Assembly (NCBI GenBank): GCA_037442885.1
Contig: JBBIPK010000006.1
Span: 4,548-68,547 of the forward strand
Source: Acidobacteriota bacterium
GTDB lineage: Bacteria > Acidobacteriota > Terriglobia > Acidiferrales > 2-02-FULL-67-57
DNA length: 64,000 bases
Direction: 5' to 3'
Of the stretch, positions 5,183 through 18,838 are shown piece by piece (position 1 is the stretch's first letter; each line of letters opens with the position of its first letter). Under the pieces are notes generated by a model that had not been told where the DNA came from, made no database searches, and saw nothing but the letters and a program-made list of their open reading frames with translations. A program made the position numbers and the translations under genes.

Positions 5183-6857
<1,675 letters not shown>

Positions 6858-8665: not shown

Positions 8666-9577
8666 ATGGCTTGGTTCCGCCGCGAAAAGAAGCCGCTGGA
8701 GACGCCGCCGCCCGAGGCGCGTCCGGTGAAGACCGAAGGGCTGTGGGTCAAGTGCGAGGGCTGCGCGCAGATTATCTGGAAGAAGGACCTGGAAGCCAAC
8801 CTGAACGTCTGCCCGCGCTGCCAGTACCACTACCGCATCAGCGCCGTGCAACGCCTGGAGTTGCTCTTCGACGAGGGGCGCTGGACGGAGCACGATGCGA
8901 ATCTGGCCTCGAATGACCCGCTGCGGTTCGTGGACACCAAGCCCTACAAGGAGCGCCTGGGAAGCGCGCGCGACGCCACCGGATTGAAGGACGCCATCAT
9001 CTTTGCCGAGGGCACGCTCGCCGGACGGTCGGTGCAGATCGGGGCGATGGAATTCGGCTTTATCGGCGGCTCGATGGGGGCGGTGGTGGGGGAGAAAGTG
9101 ACGCGGGCGATTGAGCGCTCGCGGGAACGCCACCTGCCGCTCATTATCGTCTCCTGCTCGGGCGGGGCGCGGATGATGGAGGGCGTAATCAGTCTGATGC
9201 AGATGGCGAAGATTTCGGCGGCGCTGGCGCGGCTGGACGACGCGCGCGTCCCCTACCTCAGCGTCCTCACCGACCCCACCACGGGCGGCGTCACCGCCTG
9301 CTACGCGATGCTCGGCGACCTGAACATCGCCGAACCGGGCGCTCTTATCGGCTTTGCCGGCCCGCGCGTCATCGAGCAGACCATTCGCCAGAAGCTGCCC
9401 GAAGGGTTCCAGCGCGCCGAGTTCTTGCTCGAGCACGGCTTTCTCGATGCGGTGGTGCACCGCAAGGATTTGAAGAACTATCTCGCGCAGGCGCTGGAAT
9501 TCTGCGCCCCGCCCCCACCCCCGGAGCCGACCCGGCCGCGGCTGGAGCCGCCACCCACCGCCTCCATCCTCCCCTGA
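8666..9577 (+). CDS. accD: Acetyl-CoA carboxylase carboxyltransferase beta subunit
   Basis: N-terminal Zn ribbon CEGC...CPRC, GGSMG, carboxyltransferase core. Confidence 0.95.
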
Positions 9578-12548: not shown

Positions 12549-13364
12549 ATGAGAATCGTGCTCGCCCTCTTGCTGCTGCTCGTGGCCATACCCGGGTTCG
12601 CCCAAGAGGCGAAGACACCACCGAACAAGGCGCAGGAACTGGTCGAGCAGGCCGTGGCCGCGCTGGGCGGCGAGGCGTACTTGAACGTCACGGGCTACAT
12701 CCGCACGGGCAGGATCTACAGCTTCAGCCGCGGGGAGTTGGCGAGCCCAGGCACGGTGTTCACCGAATACGCCAAGTATCCCGACAAGTCGCGGGTCGAG
12801 TATTACAAGAATCGCAGCATCATCCAGGTCAATAACGGCGATGAAGGCTGGGAGCTGGATACCCAGGGAGTGCGCGAGCAGACGCCGGAATCGATTCGCG
12901 ACTTCAAAGAGAGTGTGAAGCGCGATCTTGATTTTCTCCTCCGCGCTCGCCGCACCGAGCCCGGGATGCAGTTCTACTATCTGGGCTCACAGTTCTTGGA
13001 CAACCGACGGGTGGAAGTGGTGGAGATGGTGGACGCGGAGAACGAAAGCTATGTGCTCTACCTGGACGCGGAGACGCACCTGCCGCTGCGGTTGCGCTAT
13101 CGGGAGCAGGACGAGCTGACGCGGGAGATGGTGGAGGTAGTGGAGTATTACGGCATCTATATCGACTTTGGCGGCGTGCGCTCGCCGCGCCAGATTACGC
13201 GGGAACGGGCCCGACTGCGCGTGTTTGAAGCCACCGAGCTGAAAGTGGACTTCAAGAGCCCGATCGCCGACGAGTTGTTCACGCGCGCGTCGCTGGAAGC
13301 GCGCTGGCAGGAAATCGGCAAGAAACAGAAAAAGAAGAAAAAGAAGGAAGAGGAAGAGCCCTAG
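12549..13364 (+). CDS. Exported hypothetical protein (possibly LolA-like fold), Lys/Glu-rich C-terminal tail
   Basis: Signal peptide MRIVLALLLLLVAIPGFAQE. No catalytic motif recognised. Tail is KKQKKKKKKEEEEP. Confidence 0.5.
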   Translation: MRIVLALLLLLVAIPGFAQEAKTPPNKAQELVEQAVAALGGEAYLNVTGYIRTGRIYSFSRGELASPGTVFTEYAKYPDKSRVEYYKNRSIIQVNNGDEGWELDTQGVREQTPESIRDFKESVKRDLDFLLRARRTEPGMQFYYLGSQFLDNRRVEVVEMVDAENESYVLYLDAETHLPLRLRYREQDELTREMVEVVEYYGIYIDFGGVRSPRQITRERARLRVFEATELKVDFKSPIADELFTRASLEARWQEIGKKQKKKKKKEEEEP

Positions 13365-13452
13365 GGGTCGGTGGTTGCGAATGAGGGAAAACGCTCCCCT
13401 GGCTCTCGGGCGCAGGTGTCGCCGCCGCAGGTCCGTTGCGGTGCAGGCAGAA

Positions 13453-13461
13453 TGCTATAAT
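13453..13461 (+). promoter_or_regulatory. Extended -10 promoter element (TGCTATAAT) upstream of hslV
   Basis: TGCTATAAT lies 20 nt upstream of the hslV GTG. The same 9-mer recurs upstream of hslU and tal. Confidence 0.5.
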
Positions 13462-13481
13462 CCGCGCTGGGAGTAGGAAGA

Positions 13482-14027
13482 GTGAAGAAACCAGCTCAAC
13501 GCCCGCACGGCACCACCGTGCTCTGCGTGCGGCGCGACGCCAAGGTCGTGTTTGCGGGCGACGGCCAGGTCAGCATCGGCGACACCATCTTCAAACAAGG
13601 GGCGAAGAAAATTCGCCGGCTCTACAACGACAAGGTGCTGGCGGGATTTGCGGGCGCGACCGCCGACGCGCTCTCCCTGTTTGCGCGCTTTGAGGCCAAA
13701 TTGCAGGAGCATGCCGGCAACCTGCCGCGGGCGGCGGTGGAGCTGGCCAAGGAGTGGCGCACGGACCGCGCTCTGCGGCATCTGGACGCGTTGCTGCTGG
13801 TGGCCGACGCCAAGAGCACCTTCCTGCTCTCCGGCAACGGCGACATCATCGAACCCGACGACGGCCTGGCCGCCATCGGTTCGGGCGGCCCCTACGCGCT
13901 GGCGGCCGCGCGGGCCTTGACCAAGCACACGAAACTCTCCGCGCGCGAGGTTGCGCAGGAGGCGATGCAGGTCGCAGCCGGCATCTGCGTCTTCACCAAC
14001 ACCAACTTCGTCTTCGAGGAACTCTGA
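13482..14027 (+). CDS. hslV: ATP-dependent protease subunit HslV
   Basis: [11 protein letters not shown] (N-terminal Thr nucleophile after a short propeptide), [20 protein letters not shown]. Confidence 0.95.
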
Positions 14028-14030
14028 GCC

Positions 14031-14411
14031 GTGCTGAGCGCGGCAGGCGTTCAACCCGCGCGGCGCGGGCGGGGAGCGGGCCTGCTCCAGGTCGTGCTCG
14101 CCCTGGTGGTGGCTCTCGCGCTGGTCTGGCTGGCGCTGAAGATGTTCGAACGGCAGCGCTCGGTTCCCACTGGCCGCGGCGTGCCGCCGGCGCGGGCAGT
14201 CCTGGACAGCGTCGAGTTGCAGATCGGCGGGATTGAATCACCCACAGATGCGCTCACCGTCCAGGCGGCCTTGCAGCGAACTCCGGGGGTGGCGGGCGTG
14301 CAGGTTGACCCGTCGTCCGGCCGCGCGCGCATCACCTACGACCCCAACCGCACCCATCCTGACCAGCTCATCGCCGTCGTCCGCCAGGCCGGCTTTCAGG
14401 CCAGCCGGTAG
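14031..14411 (+). CDS. Membrane-anchored HMA-like (ferredoxin-fold) domain protein lacking the CxxC metal site
   Basis: One TM helix (LLQVVLALVVALALVWLAL) followed by an HMA-like domain. GMxCxxC is replaced by GIESPTD. C-terminus QLIAVVRQAGFQASR is paralogous to the MerT-HMA protein C-terminus. Confidence 0.6.
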   Translation: MLSAAGVQPARRGRGAGLLQVVLALVVALALVWLALKMFERQRSVPTGRGVPPARAVLDSVELQIGGIESPTDALTVQAALQRTPGVAGVQVDPSSGRARITYDPNRTHPDQLIAVVRQAGFQASR

Positions 14412-14466
14412 GGTCGCAGCTCCCCAAGAAAGATTTGCTTGCAACCGTTGGCCGTTCCATGCATCC

Positions 14467-14485
14467 TATCCCTGAGGAGGGGATA
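14467..14485. promoter_or_regulatory. Candidate CsoR-type operator palindrome
   Basis: TATCCC-N7-GGGATA overlaps the RBS and ATG of the CsoR-like gene. Confidence 0.3.
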
Positions 14486-14793
14486 TGCCGAAGGCGTTGC
14501 CTGTCGTCAAGGACATCTATCTCGATGCCGAGGTCGAGCAGGAGCTGCAGAACCGTCTGAGCCGGATCGAGGGGCACGTGCGGGGGGTGAAGCGGATGTT
14601 GGCCGAGCATGCCTCCTGTGAAGACCTATTGCTGCAGCTCACCGCCATCCGCTCGGCCCTGAATCAGGTCGCCGCTCGGCTGCTCGAGAATCATATGGAT
14701 ACCTGCGTGGCCGACGCCGTACGAGCTGGTGGGGGCCAGAAGGCACTGGCTCACCTCAAAGGCGCCTTAGCTCAGGTATTGAAGAACCAATAA
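14485..14793 (+). CDS. CsoR/RcnR/FrmR-family metal-sensing transcriptional repressor (Cu(I)-type C-H-C signature)
   Basis: Cys45, His70 and Cys74 show the same 25/4 spacing as the characterised CsoR ligands (..HASCEDLL.., ..ENHMDTC..). All-helical, about 100 aa. Confidence 0.85.
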   Translation: MPKALPVVKDIYLDAEVEQELQNRLSRIEGHVRGVKRMLAEHASCEDLLLQLTAIRSALNQVAARLLENHMDTCVADAVRAGGGQKALAHLKGALAQVLKNQ

Positions 14794-14813
14794 GCAGGAA
14801 AGGAAGAAACTCA

Positions 14814-15410
14814 ATGAATGAGAAATCTGTTGTTGTCGCCTCTGGTATTACCGCCTTTCTCGCTTCTCTCTGCTGCCTCGGACCGTTGCTGTTAGGAGGG
14901 ATCGGCTTAGGGGTGGCGCTTTCGGCCGCGTTTGAATCACTGCGGCCCTACTTCCTGGGTCTAACCGCCGTGCTGCTGCCTCTGGGGTTCTATCTGGCCT
15001 ACCGCAAGCCGAAGGCGGTCGCATGCGCCGACCAAAGCTGTGCGCCTGCGGCTAGCCGTAGGCAGAGGTTCGTCCGGCCTTTCCTCTGGATCGCAGCCTT
15101 GGCGGTGCTCGCCTTGGCACTTTTCCCCGTCTATGGCGCCCGGCTGGTGCCTTCAGTGAAGCACTCGGGTCAATCCCCTGCCCCGATGAAGGAGGCGAAT
15201 TCAGCTCACCTGATCCTCAAGGTCAGCGGGATGAGTTGCGAAGCCTGCGCTGTCTCTGTGCGCACGGCTCTGCTGAAATTTTCCGGTGTGGCGGAAGCGC
15301 GTGTGGACGTCGGTGGTGCAGCTGCCTACGTGCGCTATGATCCAGACCAGGTCAAGCCCGAGCAACTCATCGCAGCCGTCAACCGCACTGGGTTCAAGGC
15401 CTCCCGTTGA
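14814..15410 (+). CDS. merT: MerT-like metal transporter fused to a C-terminal HMA (MerP-like) domain
   Basis: TM1 LASLCCLGPLLL matches the MerT CC motif, and a second Cys pair follows (ACADQSCA). C-terminal HMA domain has GMSCEAC. Confidence 0.8.
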   Translation: MNEKSVVVASGITAFLASLCCLGPLLLGGIGLGVALSAAFESLRPYFLGLTAVLLPLGFYLAYRKPKAVACADQSCAPAASRRQRFVRPFLWIAALAVLALALFPVYGARLVPSVKHSGQSPAPMKEANSAHLILKVSGMSCEACAVSVRTALLKFSGVAEARVDVGGAAAYVRYDPDQVKPEQLIAAVNRTGFKASR

Positions 15411-15427
15411 GCCCAAGCGATGGAAGG

Positions 15428-15991
15428 ATGACTCTGCCTCGCAGCGTGGAGACGGTGGAAGGCCGGGTGCTGGCGATGGCTCGTGCCTGGCTAACGGCGA
15501 ACCAACCTGCTGAGATGTGTCCCGTCTCGGCCACGACTGGCCACAAGGTGAGGCAGGTCACGCTTGGCAATCATCTGCGACCGGAGCACTGGCGGTGGGC
15601 CTGGCAGGAAGAATTCTATTTCTGCTCGGCGCCCGACTGTCCAATCGTCTATTACAACAATGCGCAAGCGATCTATTTTACCCAGGAGGAAATCCGCACG
15701 CGCGTGGGCGTCAAAATCGGCCCGCCTCCTGTTCCTGTCTGCTATTGCATGAATGTGTGTGAGGCCCAAATCTTGGACGAAATTCAGGTCAAGCGCTGCT
15801 GTGACTCGCTCGAGGACATCAAGCAATATACCAAGGCCCGGACGGGCAAGCTTTGCCACGTCACCAACCCTGCCGGCAAATGCTGCGGCAAGCACCTGAT
15901 GGCAGTGGTGGAGCGCGCGCTGGCGGCCGTGCACGATCCGGCCATGGCCCGACAGGCGCGCGAAGCCTGCTGCCAGATACCGGAAGAATAA
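15428..15991 (+). CDS. Cys-rich putative metallochaperone / (2Fe-2S)-binding protein (CopZ N-terminal-domain-like)
   Basis: Many conserved-looking Cys: CPV.., FCSAPDCP, CYCMNVC, RCC, CHVTNPAGKCCGKH. Start uncertain (TTG 15407 or ATG 15428). Confidence 0.55.
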   Translation: MTLPRSVETVEGRVLAMARAWLTANQPAEMCPVSATTGHKVRQVTLGNHLRPEHWRWAWQEEFYFCSAPDCPIVYYNNAQAIYFTQEEIRTRVGVKIGPPPVPVCYCMNVCEAQILDEIQVKRCCDSLEDIKQYTKARTGKLCHVTNPAGKCCGKHLMAVVERALAAVHDPAMARQAREACCQIPEE

Positions 15992-16005
15992 AGGAGGGGC
16001 TTGCG

Positions 16006-16242
16006 ATGGCCAAGACAGTCCGTGTCTATACGCAGCCGGGGTGACTCTTCTGCGGGCAGACGAAAGAGTTTCTTTCGCAGAAGAAGATTCCCTTCGAGGA
16101 GCGAGACATCTCCAAAGACCCGGCGGCGCTGGCAGAACTGGAGAAGCTTGGCTATATGACGACACCGGTGAGCGTCATTGACGGTGAGGTCGTGGTCGGC
16201 TTCGACATCGCGAAGTTGACTCGCCTGCTGGGCCAAGGCTAG
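16006..16242 (+). CDS. Glutaredoxin-like (NrdH/YruB-type) protein with in-frame UGA at the CxxC position; probable selenoprotein (U-L-F-C)
   Basis: AAGGAGGGG RBS lies 6 nt before ATG 16006. Reading through TGA 16042-16044 gives a 78-codon frame to TAG 16240 with Grx hallmarks (VRVYT, TTPV cis-Pro, DGEVVVGFD). A SECIS-like hairpin lies directly 3' of the TGA. Confidence 0.7.
16046..16084 (+). other. SECIS-like stem-loop (candidate selenocysteine insertion element)
   Basis: 16046-16052 pairs with 16078-16084 (7 bp) and 16061-16067 pairs with 16071-16077 (7 bp). There is an 8-nt 5' bulge and an apical GUU loop. The structure starts 2 nt after the UGA. Confidence 0.55.
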
Positions 16243-16300
16243 GCCGGCAACGAAGCAAACGGCTGGAGTCGCCCTCGCGGATTTCTACCAGGGTCCGGGG

Positions 16301-16309
16301 TGCTATAAT
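16301..16309 (+). promoter_or_regulatory. Extended -10 promoter element (TGCTATAAT) upstream of hslU
   Basis: TGCTATAAT lies 46 nt upstream of the hslU ATG. A GGTTG-UCUUCGGG-CAACC hairpin sits in the leader. Confidence 0.5.
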
Positions 16310-16355
16310 CGGCAGGGTTGTCTTCGGGCAACCAGATTTCTAGCGGACAGGAAAG

Positions 16356-17759
16356 ATGGCGATTTACCTTCCCGGAAAAGTCGGCGAGCCGGCGCCGGAA
16401 ACCGAAGCGCCCGCGGCAGGACTCGACGAACTGACGCCGCGGCAGATTGTCTCGGCGCTCGACAAGTACATCATCGGGCAGCAGCAGGCCAAGCGCGCCG
16501 TCGCCATCGCCCTGCGGAACCGGATTCGTCGGCAGAAACTCGAGCCGGAGATGGCCGAAGAAGTTCTGCCGAAGAATATTCTGATGATCGGGCCGACGGG
16601 GGTCGGAAAGACGGAGATTGCGCGGCGACTGGCACGGCTGGCGAACGCGCCCTTCCTGAAGGTGGAGGCTTCGAAATACACCGAGGTGGGCTACGTGGGC
16701 CGCGACGTCGAGTCCATGATCCGCGACCTGGTGGACGTCGCCATCGAGATGGTGCGGGAGGAAAAGCTGGAAGAAGTGGCCGAGCGCGCCGAGATGAACG
16801 CGGAAGAGAGGATGCTTGACCTGCTCCTGCCGCCACCCACCGCCACGGGCCCCGAAGACACACGGCAGCGGGAGAGCTTCCAGCAGACGCGGGAGAAAAT
16901 CCGCGCCCAACTCCGCGAAGGGCGTTTGGACGAGAAGTACGTTGAGTTGGAGGTGCGGGAGCGGAGCTTTCCGGCGTTTGAGATCGTCTCCTCGAGCGGC
17001 GTGGAAGAGATGGACGTGAACATCAAGGACGTGCTGCCGGGTTTGTTCGGCCAGATGAAGAAGAAGCGGCGGATGAAGGTCTCGGAAGCCTGGGAGTACC
17101 TAGTGGAGGAGGAAGAGAACCGACTGATTGACATGGAGCAGGTGACGCGGACAGCCGTCGGCCGGGTGGAGCAATCGGGCATCATCTTCATTGACGAGAT
17201 CGACAAGATTGCGGGCCGCGAATCGGGCCACGGGCCGGACGTGAGCCGCGAAGGCGTGCAGCGGGACATCCTGCCGATCGTGGAAGGCACGACCGTGAAC
17301 ACGCGTCACGGGATGGTGCGGACCGACCACATCCTGTTCATCGCCGCCGGGGCGTTCCACGTCACCAAGCCCTCCGACCTGATTCCCGAGTTGCAGGGGC
17401 GGTTTCCTATTCGGGTGGAGCTGCATTCGCTGACCGCGGAGGATTTTGTGCGCATTCTCCGGGAGCCGAAGAATGCGCTCATCCGGCAATACACGGCGCT
17501 GCTCGACACCGAAGGCATCCACCTGACCTTCACCGATGACGCCGCCGAAGAGATTGCGCGCTATGCGGCGCGCGTGAATGAAGGGATGGAAAACATCGGG
17601 GCGCGAAGGCTCTTCACCATCATGGAGAAGCTGCTCGATGAGATTTCCTTTGAGGCGCCAGACCTGAGGAAGAAACAGGTGAAGATTGACGCCGCCTACG
17701 TGCACAAGATGTTGGCCGACATCGTCAAGGACCAAGATCTGAGCCGCTACATCCTCTAG
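16356..17759 (+). CDS. hslU: ATP-dependent protease ATPase subunit HslU
   Basis: [17 protein letters not shown], Walker [16 protein letters not shown], Walker [11 protein letters not shown]-terminal [11 protein letters not shown]. Confidence 0.95.
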
Positions 17760-18838
17760 TGCCGTTCCAGCATTTCAGTCCCTTGTCTGTTTTCCTTTTT
17801 TTTCTTTCTCTCGTCTCTCTTGCCTGCGGGGTGGTGAGGCCGCCGGTACCGCCGACTCCGAAGATTCCAGTCCCGCCGCAGGACCTCGTGGCGGAGCAAC
17901 ACGGCGAGCAGGTGGTGCTCCGCTGGACGCTGCCGGCGCTCCATACGGATGGGACGCGCGTCACGGGTAGCCAGCAGATTGAAATTCACCGTTGGTTTGC
18001 GGGAAGCTCGGAGAACCTGAGCGAGCGATTTGGCGTCGAGGCTCAACTCATCTACGTCATTCCTGCGGACGTGGCGAGCCGATTTGAGCGCGAAGGGAAG
18101 ATCGAGTTTGCCGATCCGCTTGGACCGCGGCGGCTGGCCGAGCAGGCGGGCCGCTACGCGGTCTATGGCATTAAAGTGCTGAACCGGAAGGACGAGGCAG
18201 CCGCGTTCTCGAATCTCGTCGCCGTGCGGGTCTATCCCGTGCCCACCGCCGTTGCAAAGATTGAGACAGAGGTCAGCGAACGTGCCATCCGCCTGCGCTG
18301 GACACCTCCGAGCGAGACGACAAGCCGGACGCCGGTCCCCGCGATTGCCGGCTATCGCGTCTATCGGGGGCCGGAACAGGCGGAGAAGCTGCAACCGGTA
18401 ACGACAGTCTCGACGACTGACTATACAGATACGAATTTTCGATTTGGAGAAACCATCTACTACCGGGTGCGGGCGGTGGCGCAGTACGGGGAGGAGCAGG
18501 TGGAAGGGGTGGACTCGGCCATCGTCAGCGTGACGCCGCAGGATGTGTTCGCGCCGCCGACACCGGAGAATCTGACGGCTATTGCGAGCCGCGGGCGGGT
18601 GGATTTGACCTGGGACGCCAGCCCAGCCGCTGACCTGGCCGGCTACGTTGTCTATCGCGCCGAGCAACCGGAGGATGGGTATCGGCGCCTGAATCCCGAG
18701 GCAGTTGTCGTGCAGAGTTTCGGAGACACCGGGGTGGCAGCCGGGAAGACTTACTATTACGCGGTCACCGCAGTGGATCGCAGGGGGAACGAGAGCGCGC
18801 GCTCGCAATCTGCGGTCGTGACCGTGCCGGCGGAGTAG
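17759..18838 (+). CDS. Lipoprotein with fibronectin type III-like repeats
   Basis: Lipobox-like LVSLAC|G signal. Repeated LRWTxP / LTWDAS ... Y.VYR ... YYY.V.AVD patterns typical of FN3 modules. Confidence 0.7.
   Translation: MPFQHFSPLSVFLFFLSLVSLACGVVRPPVPPTPKIPVPPQDLVAEQHGEQVVLRWTLPALHTDGTRVTGSQQIEIHRWFAGSSENLSERFGVEAQLIYVIPADVASRFEREGKIEFADPLGPRRLAEQAGRYAVYGIKVLNRKDEAAAFSNLVAVRVYPVPTAVAKIETEVSERAIRLRWTPPSETTSRTPVPAIAGYRVYRGPEQAEKLQPVTTVSTTDYTDTNFRFGETIYYRVRAVAQYGEEQVEGVDSAIVSVTPQDVFAPPTPENLTAIASRGRVDLTWDASPAADLAGYVVYRAEQPEDGYRRLNPEAVVVQSFGDTGVAAGKTYYYAVTAVDRRGNESARSQSAVVTVPAE

Follow-up and report, generated by a model that had tools for sequence, protein, structure and literature searches.

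In the 64,000-nucleotide stretch of Acidobacteriota DNA analysed here (contig JBBIPK010000006.1, hereafter the window), the gene at positions 16006–16242 very probably encodes a functional selenocysteine (Sec)-containing glutaredoxin (Grx) with the active site U13-L-F-C16, whose in-frame UGA codon is decoded through a hairpin at 16061–16077. As judged from sequence comparisons, the UGA at 16042–16044 would be read as Sec by SelB and Sec-tRNA(Sec), recruited by a bacterial Sec insertion sequence (SECIS) within the coding sequence, and both Sec insertion and SelB binding would be expected in this organism. The SECIS is predicted to be a hairpin of 7–8 base pairs (bp) with a small apical loop that shows an invariant G-U about 23 nucleotides (nt) after the UGA. 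With this reading the gene map of the window is corrected: an apparent open reading frame (ORF) of 63 residues stopped at the TGA, together with seemingly non-coding DNA, gives way to a full 78-residue selenoprotein, the last gene of a metal-responsive cassette. Knowledge of how Sec is encoded is unchanged by this finding, and a UxxC glutaredoxin will be no surprise to a specialist; what it adds, usefully but incrementally, is that the Sec form predominates, that databases systematically truncate it and that it consistently occurs in metal operons.

The gene lies on the forward strand and runs from an ATG at 16006–16008 to a TAG at 16240–16242, giving 78 sense codons in a single frame through the TGA. 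A Shine-Dalgarno-like AAGGAGG, read from the sequence, is located at 15991–15997, 8 nt 5' of the ATG and right behind the TAA of the upstream gene. When U is replaced by C, the read-through product matches the Pfam family PF00462 (Glutaredoxin) with an E value of 2.7e-16 and 59.9 bits, against a cutoff of 22.9. The TGA occupies the first position of U-L-F-C, and the TGC at 16051–16053 supplies the resolving Cys16 of the UxxC motif, a column that is invariant across all homologues; the protein ends in ...LLGQG and has no second UGA. The guanine-plus-cytosine (GC) content by codon position, 0.60/0.38/0.76 for the whole gene, resembles that of the neighbouring genes and follows a coding pattern both 5' (0.58/0.50/0.75) and 3' (0.62/0.35/0.77) of the TGA. 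The initial annotation had proposed this frame, with the TGA in place of the first Cys of a glutaredoxin CxxC; its coordinates proved correct to the base and the product is as it was quoted, and the placement of the TGA agrees with the match to PF00462 and with the structural alignment described below. It had also argued against a reassigned genetic code, citing the TGA stops of hslV and the MerT-like gene. Both stops were confirmed and those of yajC and secD can be added, and because TGA is the normal stop of these four genes in the window, the standard code applies and reassignment is excluded.

The codon at the Sec site was followed in 80 loci from one-genome-per-species contigs (designated by L-numbers), retrieved by C-terminal peptide patterns that are independent of that site. 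The codon aligned with 16042–16044 is TGA in 75 of them and a Cys codon, TGC or TGT, in the remaining five, which are the most divergent (L073, L076, L078, L079 and L080). In one frame, the 75 TGA loci read V-(V/I)-V-Y-(S/T)-Q-P-G before the TGA and x-F-C-x-x-x-K-E-F-L-S-Q after it, and they span at least eight phyla, including Acidobacteriota, Chloroflexota, Methylomirabilota, Rokubacteria, Armatimonadota, Binatia, Eisenbacteria and Thermodesulfobacteriota. Between loci, the codons 5' of the TGA differ at synonymous sites but specify conserved residues, which is the pattern expected of a translated region. Cys is also found at the Sec site in close full-length relatives, among them P0002, P0003 and P0009 (P-numbers denote protein clusters and entries), whose DNA was checked; the suggestion that orthologues should be searched for Cys at position 13 is thereby answered in the affirmative. 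Since Sec and Cys alternate at this position and the sequence is conserved on both sides of the TGA, the family carries the standard signature of a selenoprotein gene. The window protein itself is 70–71% identical to its nearest relatives, shows no frameshift or second stop and retains all family-invariant residues. The clade is thus overwhelmingly in the Sec form, as 75/80 species-level loci in at least eight phyla attest.

The best match in the PDB is 7c10 (E = 2.7e-16), whose residues 1–76 align with residues 1–76 of the window protein at 53% identity without gaps. This structure is that of Grx1 from Clostridium oremlandii, which is natively a selenoprotein, has a U(C)PxC motif and was crystallised with Cys in place of Sec (PMC7642778), and its Cys13, natively Sec, is aligned with residue 13 of the window protein. 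The two proteins (for Grx1 of C. oremlandii, also known as Clostridium sp. OhILAs, see 7c10, 7c12 and 7c13) share fold and length, and the K-E-F-L-S segment, which bears the putative SECIS in the window, is common to both at the amino-acid level. They differ in the active site, which is U-P-H-C in Grx1, U-L-F-C in the window and mostly U-M-F-C in the clade, and in the cis-Pro region, which is A-V-P-V in Grx1 and T-T-P-V in the window; one host is a clostridium, whereas the other is an Acidobacteriota-like, soil-type bacterium with 65% GC. Grx1 has been proposed to reduce the selenoprotein MsrA (PMC7642778), whereas the window gene has metal-handling neighbours. At one Anaerolineae locus (L074), which has a classical U-P-Y-C site, the hairpin sequence is the same as that of the clade. 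'Glutaredoxin (Grx), PF00462, UxxC' is listed among the experimentally verified prokaryotic selenoproteins (PMC13188914; PMC9312934). With the fold, a UGA at the first CxxC position, Cys homologues and conservation of the UGA in orthologues, the window gene is a further member of the known Sec-glutaredoxin family; the selenoprotein reading of the initial annotation is supported, but its novelty is less than was implied, the UxxC family having already been verified in those two reports.

The hairpin that the initial annotation had described 3' of the UGA was recovered with exactly the same pairs. On the forward strand, 16061–16067 pairs with 16071–16077 around the loop GUU at 16068–16070, and this apical part is made of the codons for T-K-E-F-L-S; below it, a lower stem of 7 bp is formed by a 5' arm at 16046–16052 and a 3' arm at 16078–16084, with an 8-nt 5' bulge between the two stems. 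Its conservation was assessed on a gapless alignment of 60 columns (A2) comprising the window and the 75 TGA loci, 76 sequences in total. The G and U of the loop, in columns 30 and 31, do not vary among the 76 sequences, and at least 7 contiguous bp of the apical stem, closing a loop (A)GU(U/A/G), are present in 67/76. Counted against the given structure, 86.8–87.8% of the cells of the upper helix are paired in the gapless and model-based alignments, and overall pairing is 77.6%, compared with at most 61.3% in slid controls. The column pair 23/39 covaries (AU 20, CG 16, UA 13, UG 7), and here the second base of a Val/Ala/Glu/Thr codon is matched with the synonymous third base of a Ser codon; the observed covariation score was reached by none of 500 shuffles, with a similar outcome on the model-based alignment. 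In 14 sequences, which the covariance model left unregistered and which were analysed separately, the hairpin persists one base out of register (GUGAAGG-AGUU-CCUUCAC), 94.6% of its cells being paired, and the shift of register coincides with a replacement of Ser by His or Arg.

Codon choice provides a test that is independent of any folding model. Glu21 is encoded by GAG in 70/70 sequences, compared with 51–72% at other Glu columns, and Leu23 by CTT in 70/72, compared with 5–18% at other Leu columns. Lys20 is AAA in 78% of sequences, AAG being dominant at other Lys columns, and Phe22 is TTT in 68%, where other Phe columns have TTC in 66–75%. The codons biased in this way, those for Lys20, Glu21, Phe22 and Leu23, are exactly the ones that form GAAAGAGUUUCUUUC.

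Several results nevertheless weigh against a functional, Sec-decoding gene. Compared with shuffled sequences, the hairpin of the single window sequence is at chance level (z = -1.08), so that its significance derives from the comparison of homologues only; of the folding and covariation checks that had been proposed, conservation and covariation in homologues gave a positive answer and the single-sequence fold a negative one. An extended lower stem competes with the described structure and, at -17.6 compared with -13.0 kcal/mol, is the minimum-energy fold of the free RNA, in which the apical hairpin consequently has a predicted occupancy below 1%. The lower stem is weakly conserved, with only about 63–65% of its cells paired in the family (62.9–64.5%), and RNAalifold returned no consensus structure on the gapless alignment of 76 sequences; the structure-given counting was used in its place. 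In addition, the hairpin sequence partly encodes the conserved K-E-F-L, so that protein constraint contributes to its conservation, and close Cys-form relatives retain most of it. Neither selA, selB, selD nor tRNA-Sec is found within the 64 kb of the window, and a scan of the window for other genes with an in-frame TGA, based on third-position GC periodicity on both sides, yielded no candidate. During that scan, a TGA junction before rpmA proved to be an ordinary gene junction, and a read-through candidate of 148 + 553 residues at yajC/secD resolved into two normal genes.

The position of the ribosome may account for part of the folding result. Folding without nt +1 to +15 after the UGA gives the apical hairpin as the structure of lowest energy, both for the window and for 74/76 homologues. 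Going by the known geometry of SECIS function, a ribosome with the UGA in its A site would unwind the first ~15 nt downstream, which would dissolve the competing lower stem and free the apical hairpin. Of three close Cys-form relatives, one has an intact hairpin; in another a change of GAG to GAA removes the loop G, and in the third a change of CTT to ATT disrupts the invariant G-C pair. These cases hint at a loss of the hairpin after conversion of Sec to Cys, but their small number and recent origin keep them from being decisive.

The hairpin can be compared with the bacterial SECIS of the Escherichia coli fdhF type and with the bSECISearch consensus. In all of them, a stem-loop inside the coding sequence and immediately 3' of the UGA ends in a small apical loop whose invariant G precedes a U; in the window this G-U lies ~23 nt after the UGA, and the upper hairpin starts past the mRNA covered by the ribosome. 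Unlike the known element, the clade of the window has a loop of 3–5 nt, (A)GU(U/A), on an A-U-rich stem of 7–8 bp, a bulged U is not evident, and there is no match to an Rfam family, no Rfam model reaching its gathering threshold anywhere in the window. Bacterial SECIS elements are reportedly defined, in the work of Zhang & Gladyshev from 2005 and of Liu et al. from 1998, by a stem-loop with a G in a small apical loop at a suitable distance from the UGA, and such a stem-loop is what the window gene has.

The machinery for Sec decoding was searched for in the window and in the 80 loci. With ARAGORN, the window proved free of tRNA genes altogether and none of the 80 loci gave a tRNA-Sec, and in tblastn searches with E. 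coli SelA, SelB and SelD the only hits were to SelD, in two loci, with none in the window. One selD is at L010:8996–9955, in a member of the Acidobacteriia with the same cassette, and the other is at L037:6492–7508, in a member of the Anaerolineae; both lie 4–5 kb from the Grx gene and match TIGR00476, with 380 and 394 bits, respectively (cutoff 125). Each contains an in-frame TGA (at 9035 and 6543, respectively) at the position equivalent to E. coli Cys17, which identifies the Sec form of SelD, and both organisms therefore decode UGA as Sec. Published work has already described selenoproteins from Acidobacteria (PMC1794560, Table 2). In L010, a strong hairpin, likewise with a GUU loop, lies 3' of the selD TGA.

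Three other explanations of the TGA have to be weighed against a Sec-glutaredoxin. The gene could be a decaying relic in an organism that has lost the Sec-decoding trait, in which case translation would end at 16044 and the remainder would be an untranslated remnant. Sec loss and conversion of Sec to Cys are frequent in bacteria (PMC1794560), and such a loss would fit with the Sec machinery not being seen within the window. However, the 65 codons after the TGA are intact and keep the coding-type base composition given above, the family-invariant residues are all present, the hairpin is complete including the invariant loop G-U, the ribosome-binding site is strong and the order of the cassette is conserved; at 70–71% identity to the nearest relatives, the lack of any frameshift or second stop points to continuing purifying selection, and a relic is very unlikely. 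Still less credible is a true stop at the TGA, with either two products or a 12-residue peptide only, the glutaredoxin-like part being made from an internal start; we regard this reading as extremely unlikely. Gene callers do annotate relatives as proteins of 63–72 residues that start right after the TGA, but the window has no in-frame ATG, GTG or TTG between the TGA and Met51, and in two relatives (L015 and L086) the annotated start is the ATC codon immediately 3' of the TGA. A product made from there would have neither strand beta-1 nor the catalytic first residue of CxxC, and across phyla the 12 codons before the TGA specify a conserved peptide, with variation at their synonymous sites. For the family as a whole, the pattern of conservation excludes both the pseudogene and the two-ORF reading.

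An alternative that leaves the reading frame untouched is that the UGA at 16042 is read as Cys or Ser by a tRNA-Sec-like opal suppressor, for example a selC*-type tRNA-Cys or an acidobacterial allo-tRNA. A selC* tRNA-Cys that mimics tRNA-Sec has been described and allo-tRNAs of Acidobacteria act as suppressors (PMC5389517), and the window gives no indication of which tRNA reads the codon. However, selC* has been reported in Firmicutes, Thermodesulfobacteria, Nitrospirae and Proteobacteria and not in Acidobacteria (PMC5389517), the window contains no tRNA of any kind, a Sec-type selD lies near the Grx gene in the relatives L010 and L037, and the closest characterised homologue is a real selenoprotein (PMC7642778). 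Suppression by such a tRNA is therefore highly improbable, and decoding of the UGA as Sec remains the preferred reading.

The Sec-glutaredoxin can also be set apart from other small redoxins. YruB/NrdH/BC3987-type redoxins (PDB 3zij, 1r7h) likewise consist of a single thioredoxin-fold domain of ~75–80 residues and provide the best NCBIfam and the next-best PDB matches; they differ in having Cys at the position where the window protein has Sec, and the window lacks an nrdEF context. The scores stay below the cutoffs for both the YruB family TIGR02196 (72.8 bits, cutoff 88.55) and the NrdH redoxin TIGR02194 (59.5 bits, cutoff 85.75), and no ribonucleotide-reductase gene is present among the eight genes at 12549–18838 scanned against Pfam. 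UXX-star proteins (NF041212, NF041114, NF041211, NF047338), for whose Sec a role in binding metal has been considered (PMC13188914), are also Grx-like selenoproteins and give weak profile matches to the window protein; the best of these reaches 60.4 bits against a cutoff of 66 and stops at position 66/70 of the model. In contrast to UXX-star, the C-terminal end of the model is left unmatched and the Sec of the window protein is at the N-terminal CxxC site. In total, no NCBIfam model scores at or above its cutoff for the window protein.

The gene closes a cassette that shares the forward strand with its flanking genes, in the order hslV, Cys-less HMA protein, CsoR, MerT:HMA, zf_CopZ-like protein, Sec-Grx, hslU. 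Upstream, hslV occupies 13482–14027 and is followed by a Cys-less HMA-domain protein of 126 residues (14031–14411), a degenerate HMA without CxxC (PF00403, E = 3.2e-08) with a membrane anchor predicted from its hydrophobic N-terminus. Next come a metal-sensing repressor of the CsoR/RicR family (14485–14793; PF02583, E = 8.7e-25) and a MerT-HMA (MerTP-like) fusion membrane protein (14814–15410; PF02411 and PF00403), which scores 110.6 bits with NF033556 (MerTP), below the cutoff of 180. The gene directly before the Sec-Grx (15407–15991) encodes a CopZ-N-terminal-like Zn/[2Fe-2S] protein, zf_CopZ/BFD-like, in its Cys form (PF18423 zf_CopZ, E = 1.8e-15; NF047645 and NF045877 at ~87 bits, below their cutoffs), and hslU at 16356–17759 forms the downstream flank. 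The NCBIfam kin of the MerT:HMA and CopZ-like genes, all below cutoff, include MerTP, a MerT/CopZ fusion selenoprotein, a UxxU metal-binding selenoprotein and a Csac_0668 2Fe-2S selenoprotein; the copies of both genes in the window are Cys forms. The five-gene cassette (14031–16242) lies between hslV and hslU, which are normally adjacent, and in none of the 80 related loci is it flanked by these two genes, L057 alone having a nearby hslV, on the opposite strand. No promoter-like site was detected within 13300–16500, where two terminator-like sites lie on the opposite strand inside hslV.

The initial annotation had considered a Grx in a MerT/CsoR metal context to be unusual, but a census of neighbours shows that this context is typical of the family. 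For the census, all ORFs within ~3.5 kb of the gene in the 80 loci were clustered and recurrent same-strand neighbours were counted. MerT/MerTP was found in 30 loci, a MerR-family regulator in 18, CsoR in 11 and an ArsR/SmtB regulator in seven; a CopZ-N-terminal-like protein, directly upstream of the Grx gene, a CoA-binding-domain protein and a FAD-dependent disulfide reductase were each found in 10. The cassette CsoR - MerT:HMA - (zf_CopZ) - Grx is present in ~15 Terriglobia loci at unrelated chromosomal sites, and copies of CsoR that are 72–79% identical to that of the window adjoin the Grx gene in Terriglobia loci. The reductases include, in Dehalococcoidia loci, a bona fide MerA without NmerA that is encoded directly downstream of the Sec-Grx; the one at L044:1317–2762 scores 527 bits with TIGR02053, above the cutoff of 454, and the reductases of L061 and L075 have MerA-type C-terminal Cys-Cys pairs. 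Judging from these neighbourhoods, the association with soft metals is a property of the family and not a peculiarity of the window. At other loci, different FAD disulfide reductases are encoded at the same position downstream of the Grx gene, and these may be dedicated glutaredoxin partners. Further, in an Armatimonadota-type subgroup with the shifted hairpin (L012, L026, L030–L032, L039, L045, L051, L052 and L062), a 137-residue protein is always encoded ~200 nt downstream on the same strand, and it shows a weak match to the CoA-binding part of acyl-CoA ligases only.

We hypothesize that the protein is a selenol/thiol oxidoreductase that probably serves the CsoR - MerT:HMA - CopZ-N-terminal-like - Grx cassette. 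It could keep the metal-binding cysteines of the cassette reduced, or it could bind a soft metal, Cu(I) or Hg(II), through its selenolate-thiolate pair and pass it on; from the gene neighbourhood, a partnership of the Grx with the neighbouring metal genes along one of these two lines is about as likely as not. Comparable to NmerA/MerP of mer systems, the family consists of small paired-thiol proteins encoded beside MerT-type transporters and, at some loci, upstream of a NmerA-less MerA; in contrast to these HMA proteins with a ferredoxin-like fold, it has a thioredoxin fold, and the cassette of the window has CsoR and no MerA. The likeness to a mer partner would be a functional analogy drawn from gene neighbourhood. 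A mer operon, in which MerA and MerR accompany MerT/MerP, is not what the window contains: neither MerA nor MerR is matched anywhere in it and its regulator is of the CsoR type, and the absence of MerA speaks against the proposed metal role. For Synechocystis, a MerA-like enzyme controlled by the glutaredoxin Grx1 is mentioned in PMC8261052, which cites Marteyn 2013. A more specific proposal, which we consider doubtful, is that U-x-x-C would mainly be a selenolate/thiolate soft-metal site and not a disulfide reductase, and would carry Hg(II)/Cu(I) from MerT:HMA to the CopZ-N-terminal-like [2Fe-2S] protein or to a NmerA-less MerA. The strong association of the gene with its neighbours is compatible with this proposal. 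If true, this would amount to a selenium-based functional replacement for NmerA/MerP in soil bacteria of many phyla. More broadly, a testable hypothesis is that the handling of copper or mercury may be one use to which soil bacteria put their selenium.

The clade has largely been hidden in annotations, since no NCBIfam model reaches its cutoff and relatives are recorded in truncated form. A protein search gave 1,722 relatives, and the best 120 clusters, which were inspected, are mostly 63–72 residues long and cover ~80% of the query; all short clusters that were fetched (13/13) start directly behind the Sec site, with M/V-F-C, and the NCBI record of one relative (P0033) is a 64-residue 'glutaredoxin family protein'. 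Databases thus mostly store the clade as N-terminally truncated proteins without the catalytic residue, which suggests an easy annotation fix. In 16 full-length clusters, the residue at the Sec site is Cys in seven, Trp in four, Arg in four and Leu in one. The entries with Trp (P0008, P0012, P0014 and P0016) probably come from a table in which UGA is Trp (translation table 4), because P0008 is the same as P0006 but reads the terminal stop as Trp; translation of UGA as Trp is another route by which this selenoprotein is mis-recorded.

The four clusters with Arg are P0007, P0010, P0015 and P0027. Two DNAs of this type read CGA (L088:985–987 and L089:545–547), the SECIS hairpin being fully intact in both, and L088 keeps the usual HMA - zf_CopZ - Grx context. 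The CGA codon may have arisen by a recent T-to-C change that inactivates the gene, or it may mark an R-x-x-C variant; other origins are conceivable. About 270 nt 3' of the CGA-type glutaredoxin of L089, an AhpD/CMD-like ORF at L089:1012–1557 has an in-frame TGA at 1264–1266 within C-E-Y-U-x-x-x-H; the database calls two short genes here, and from its sequence the ORF looks like a second selenoprotein gene of known type. Because this TGA-containing gene adjoins the CGA-type Grx, decoding of CGA itself as Sec is disfavoured and ordinary UGA decoding in L089 is favoured. Lastly, an NC10 contig (L060) gives two matches to the UGA-plus-hairpin model, at 1652–1711 and 6649–6708, which suggests that it holds two Sec-glutaredoxin paralogues.

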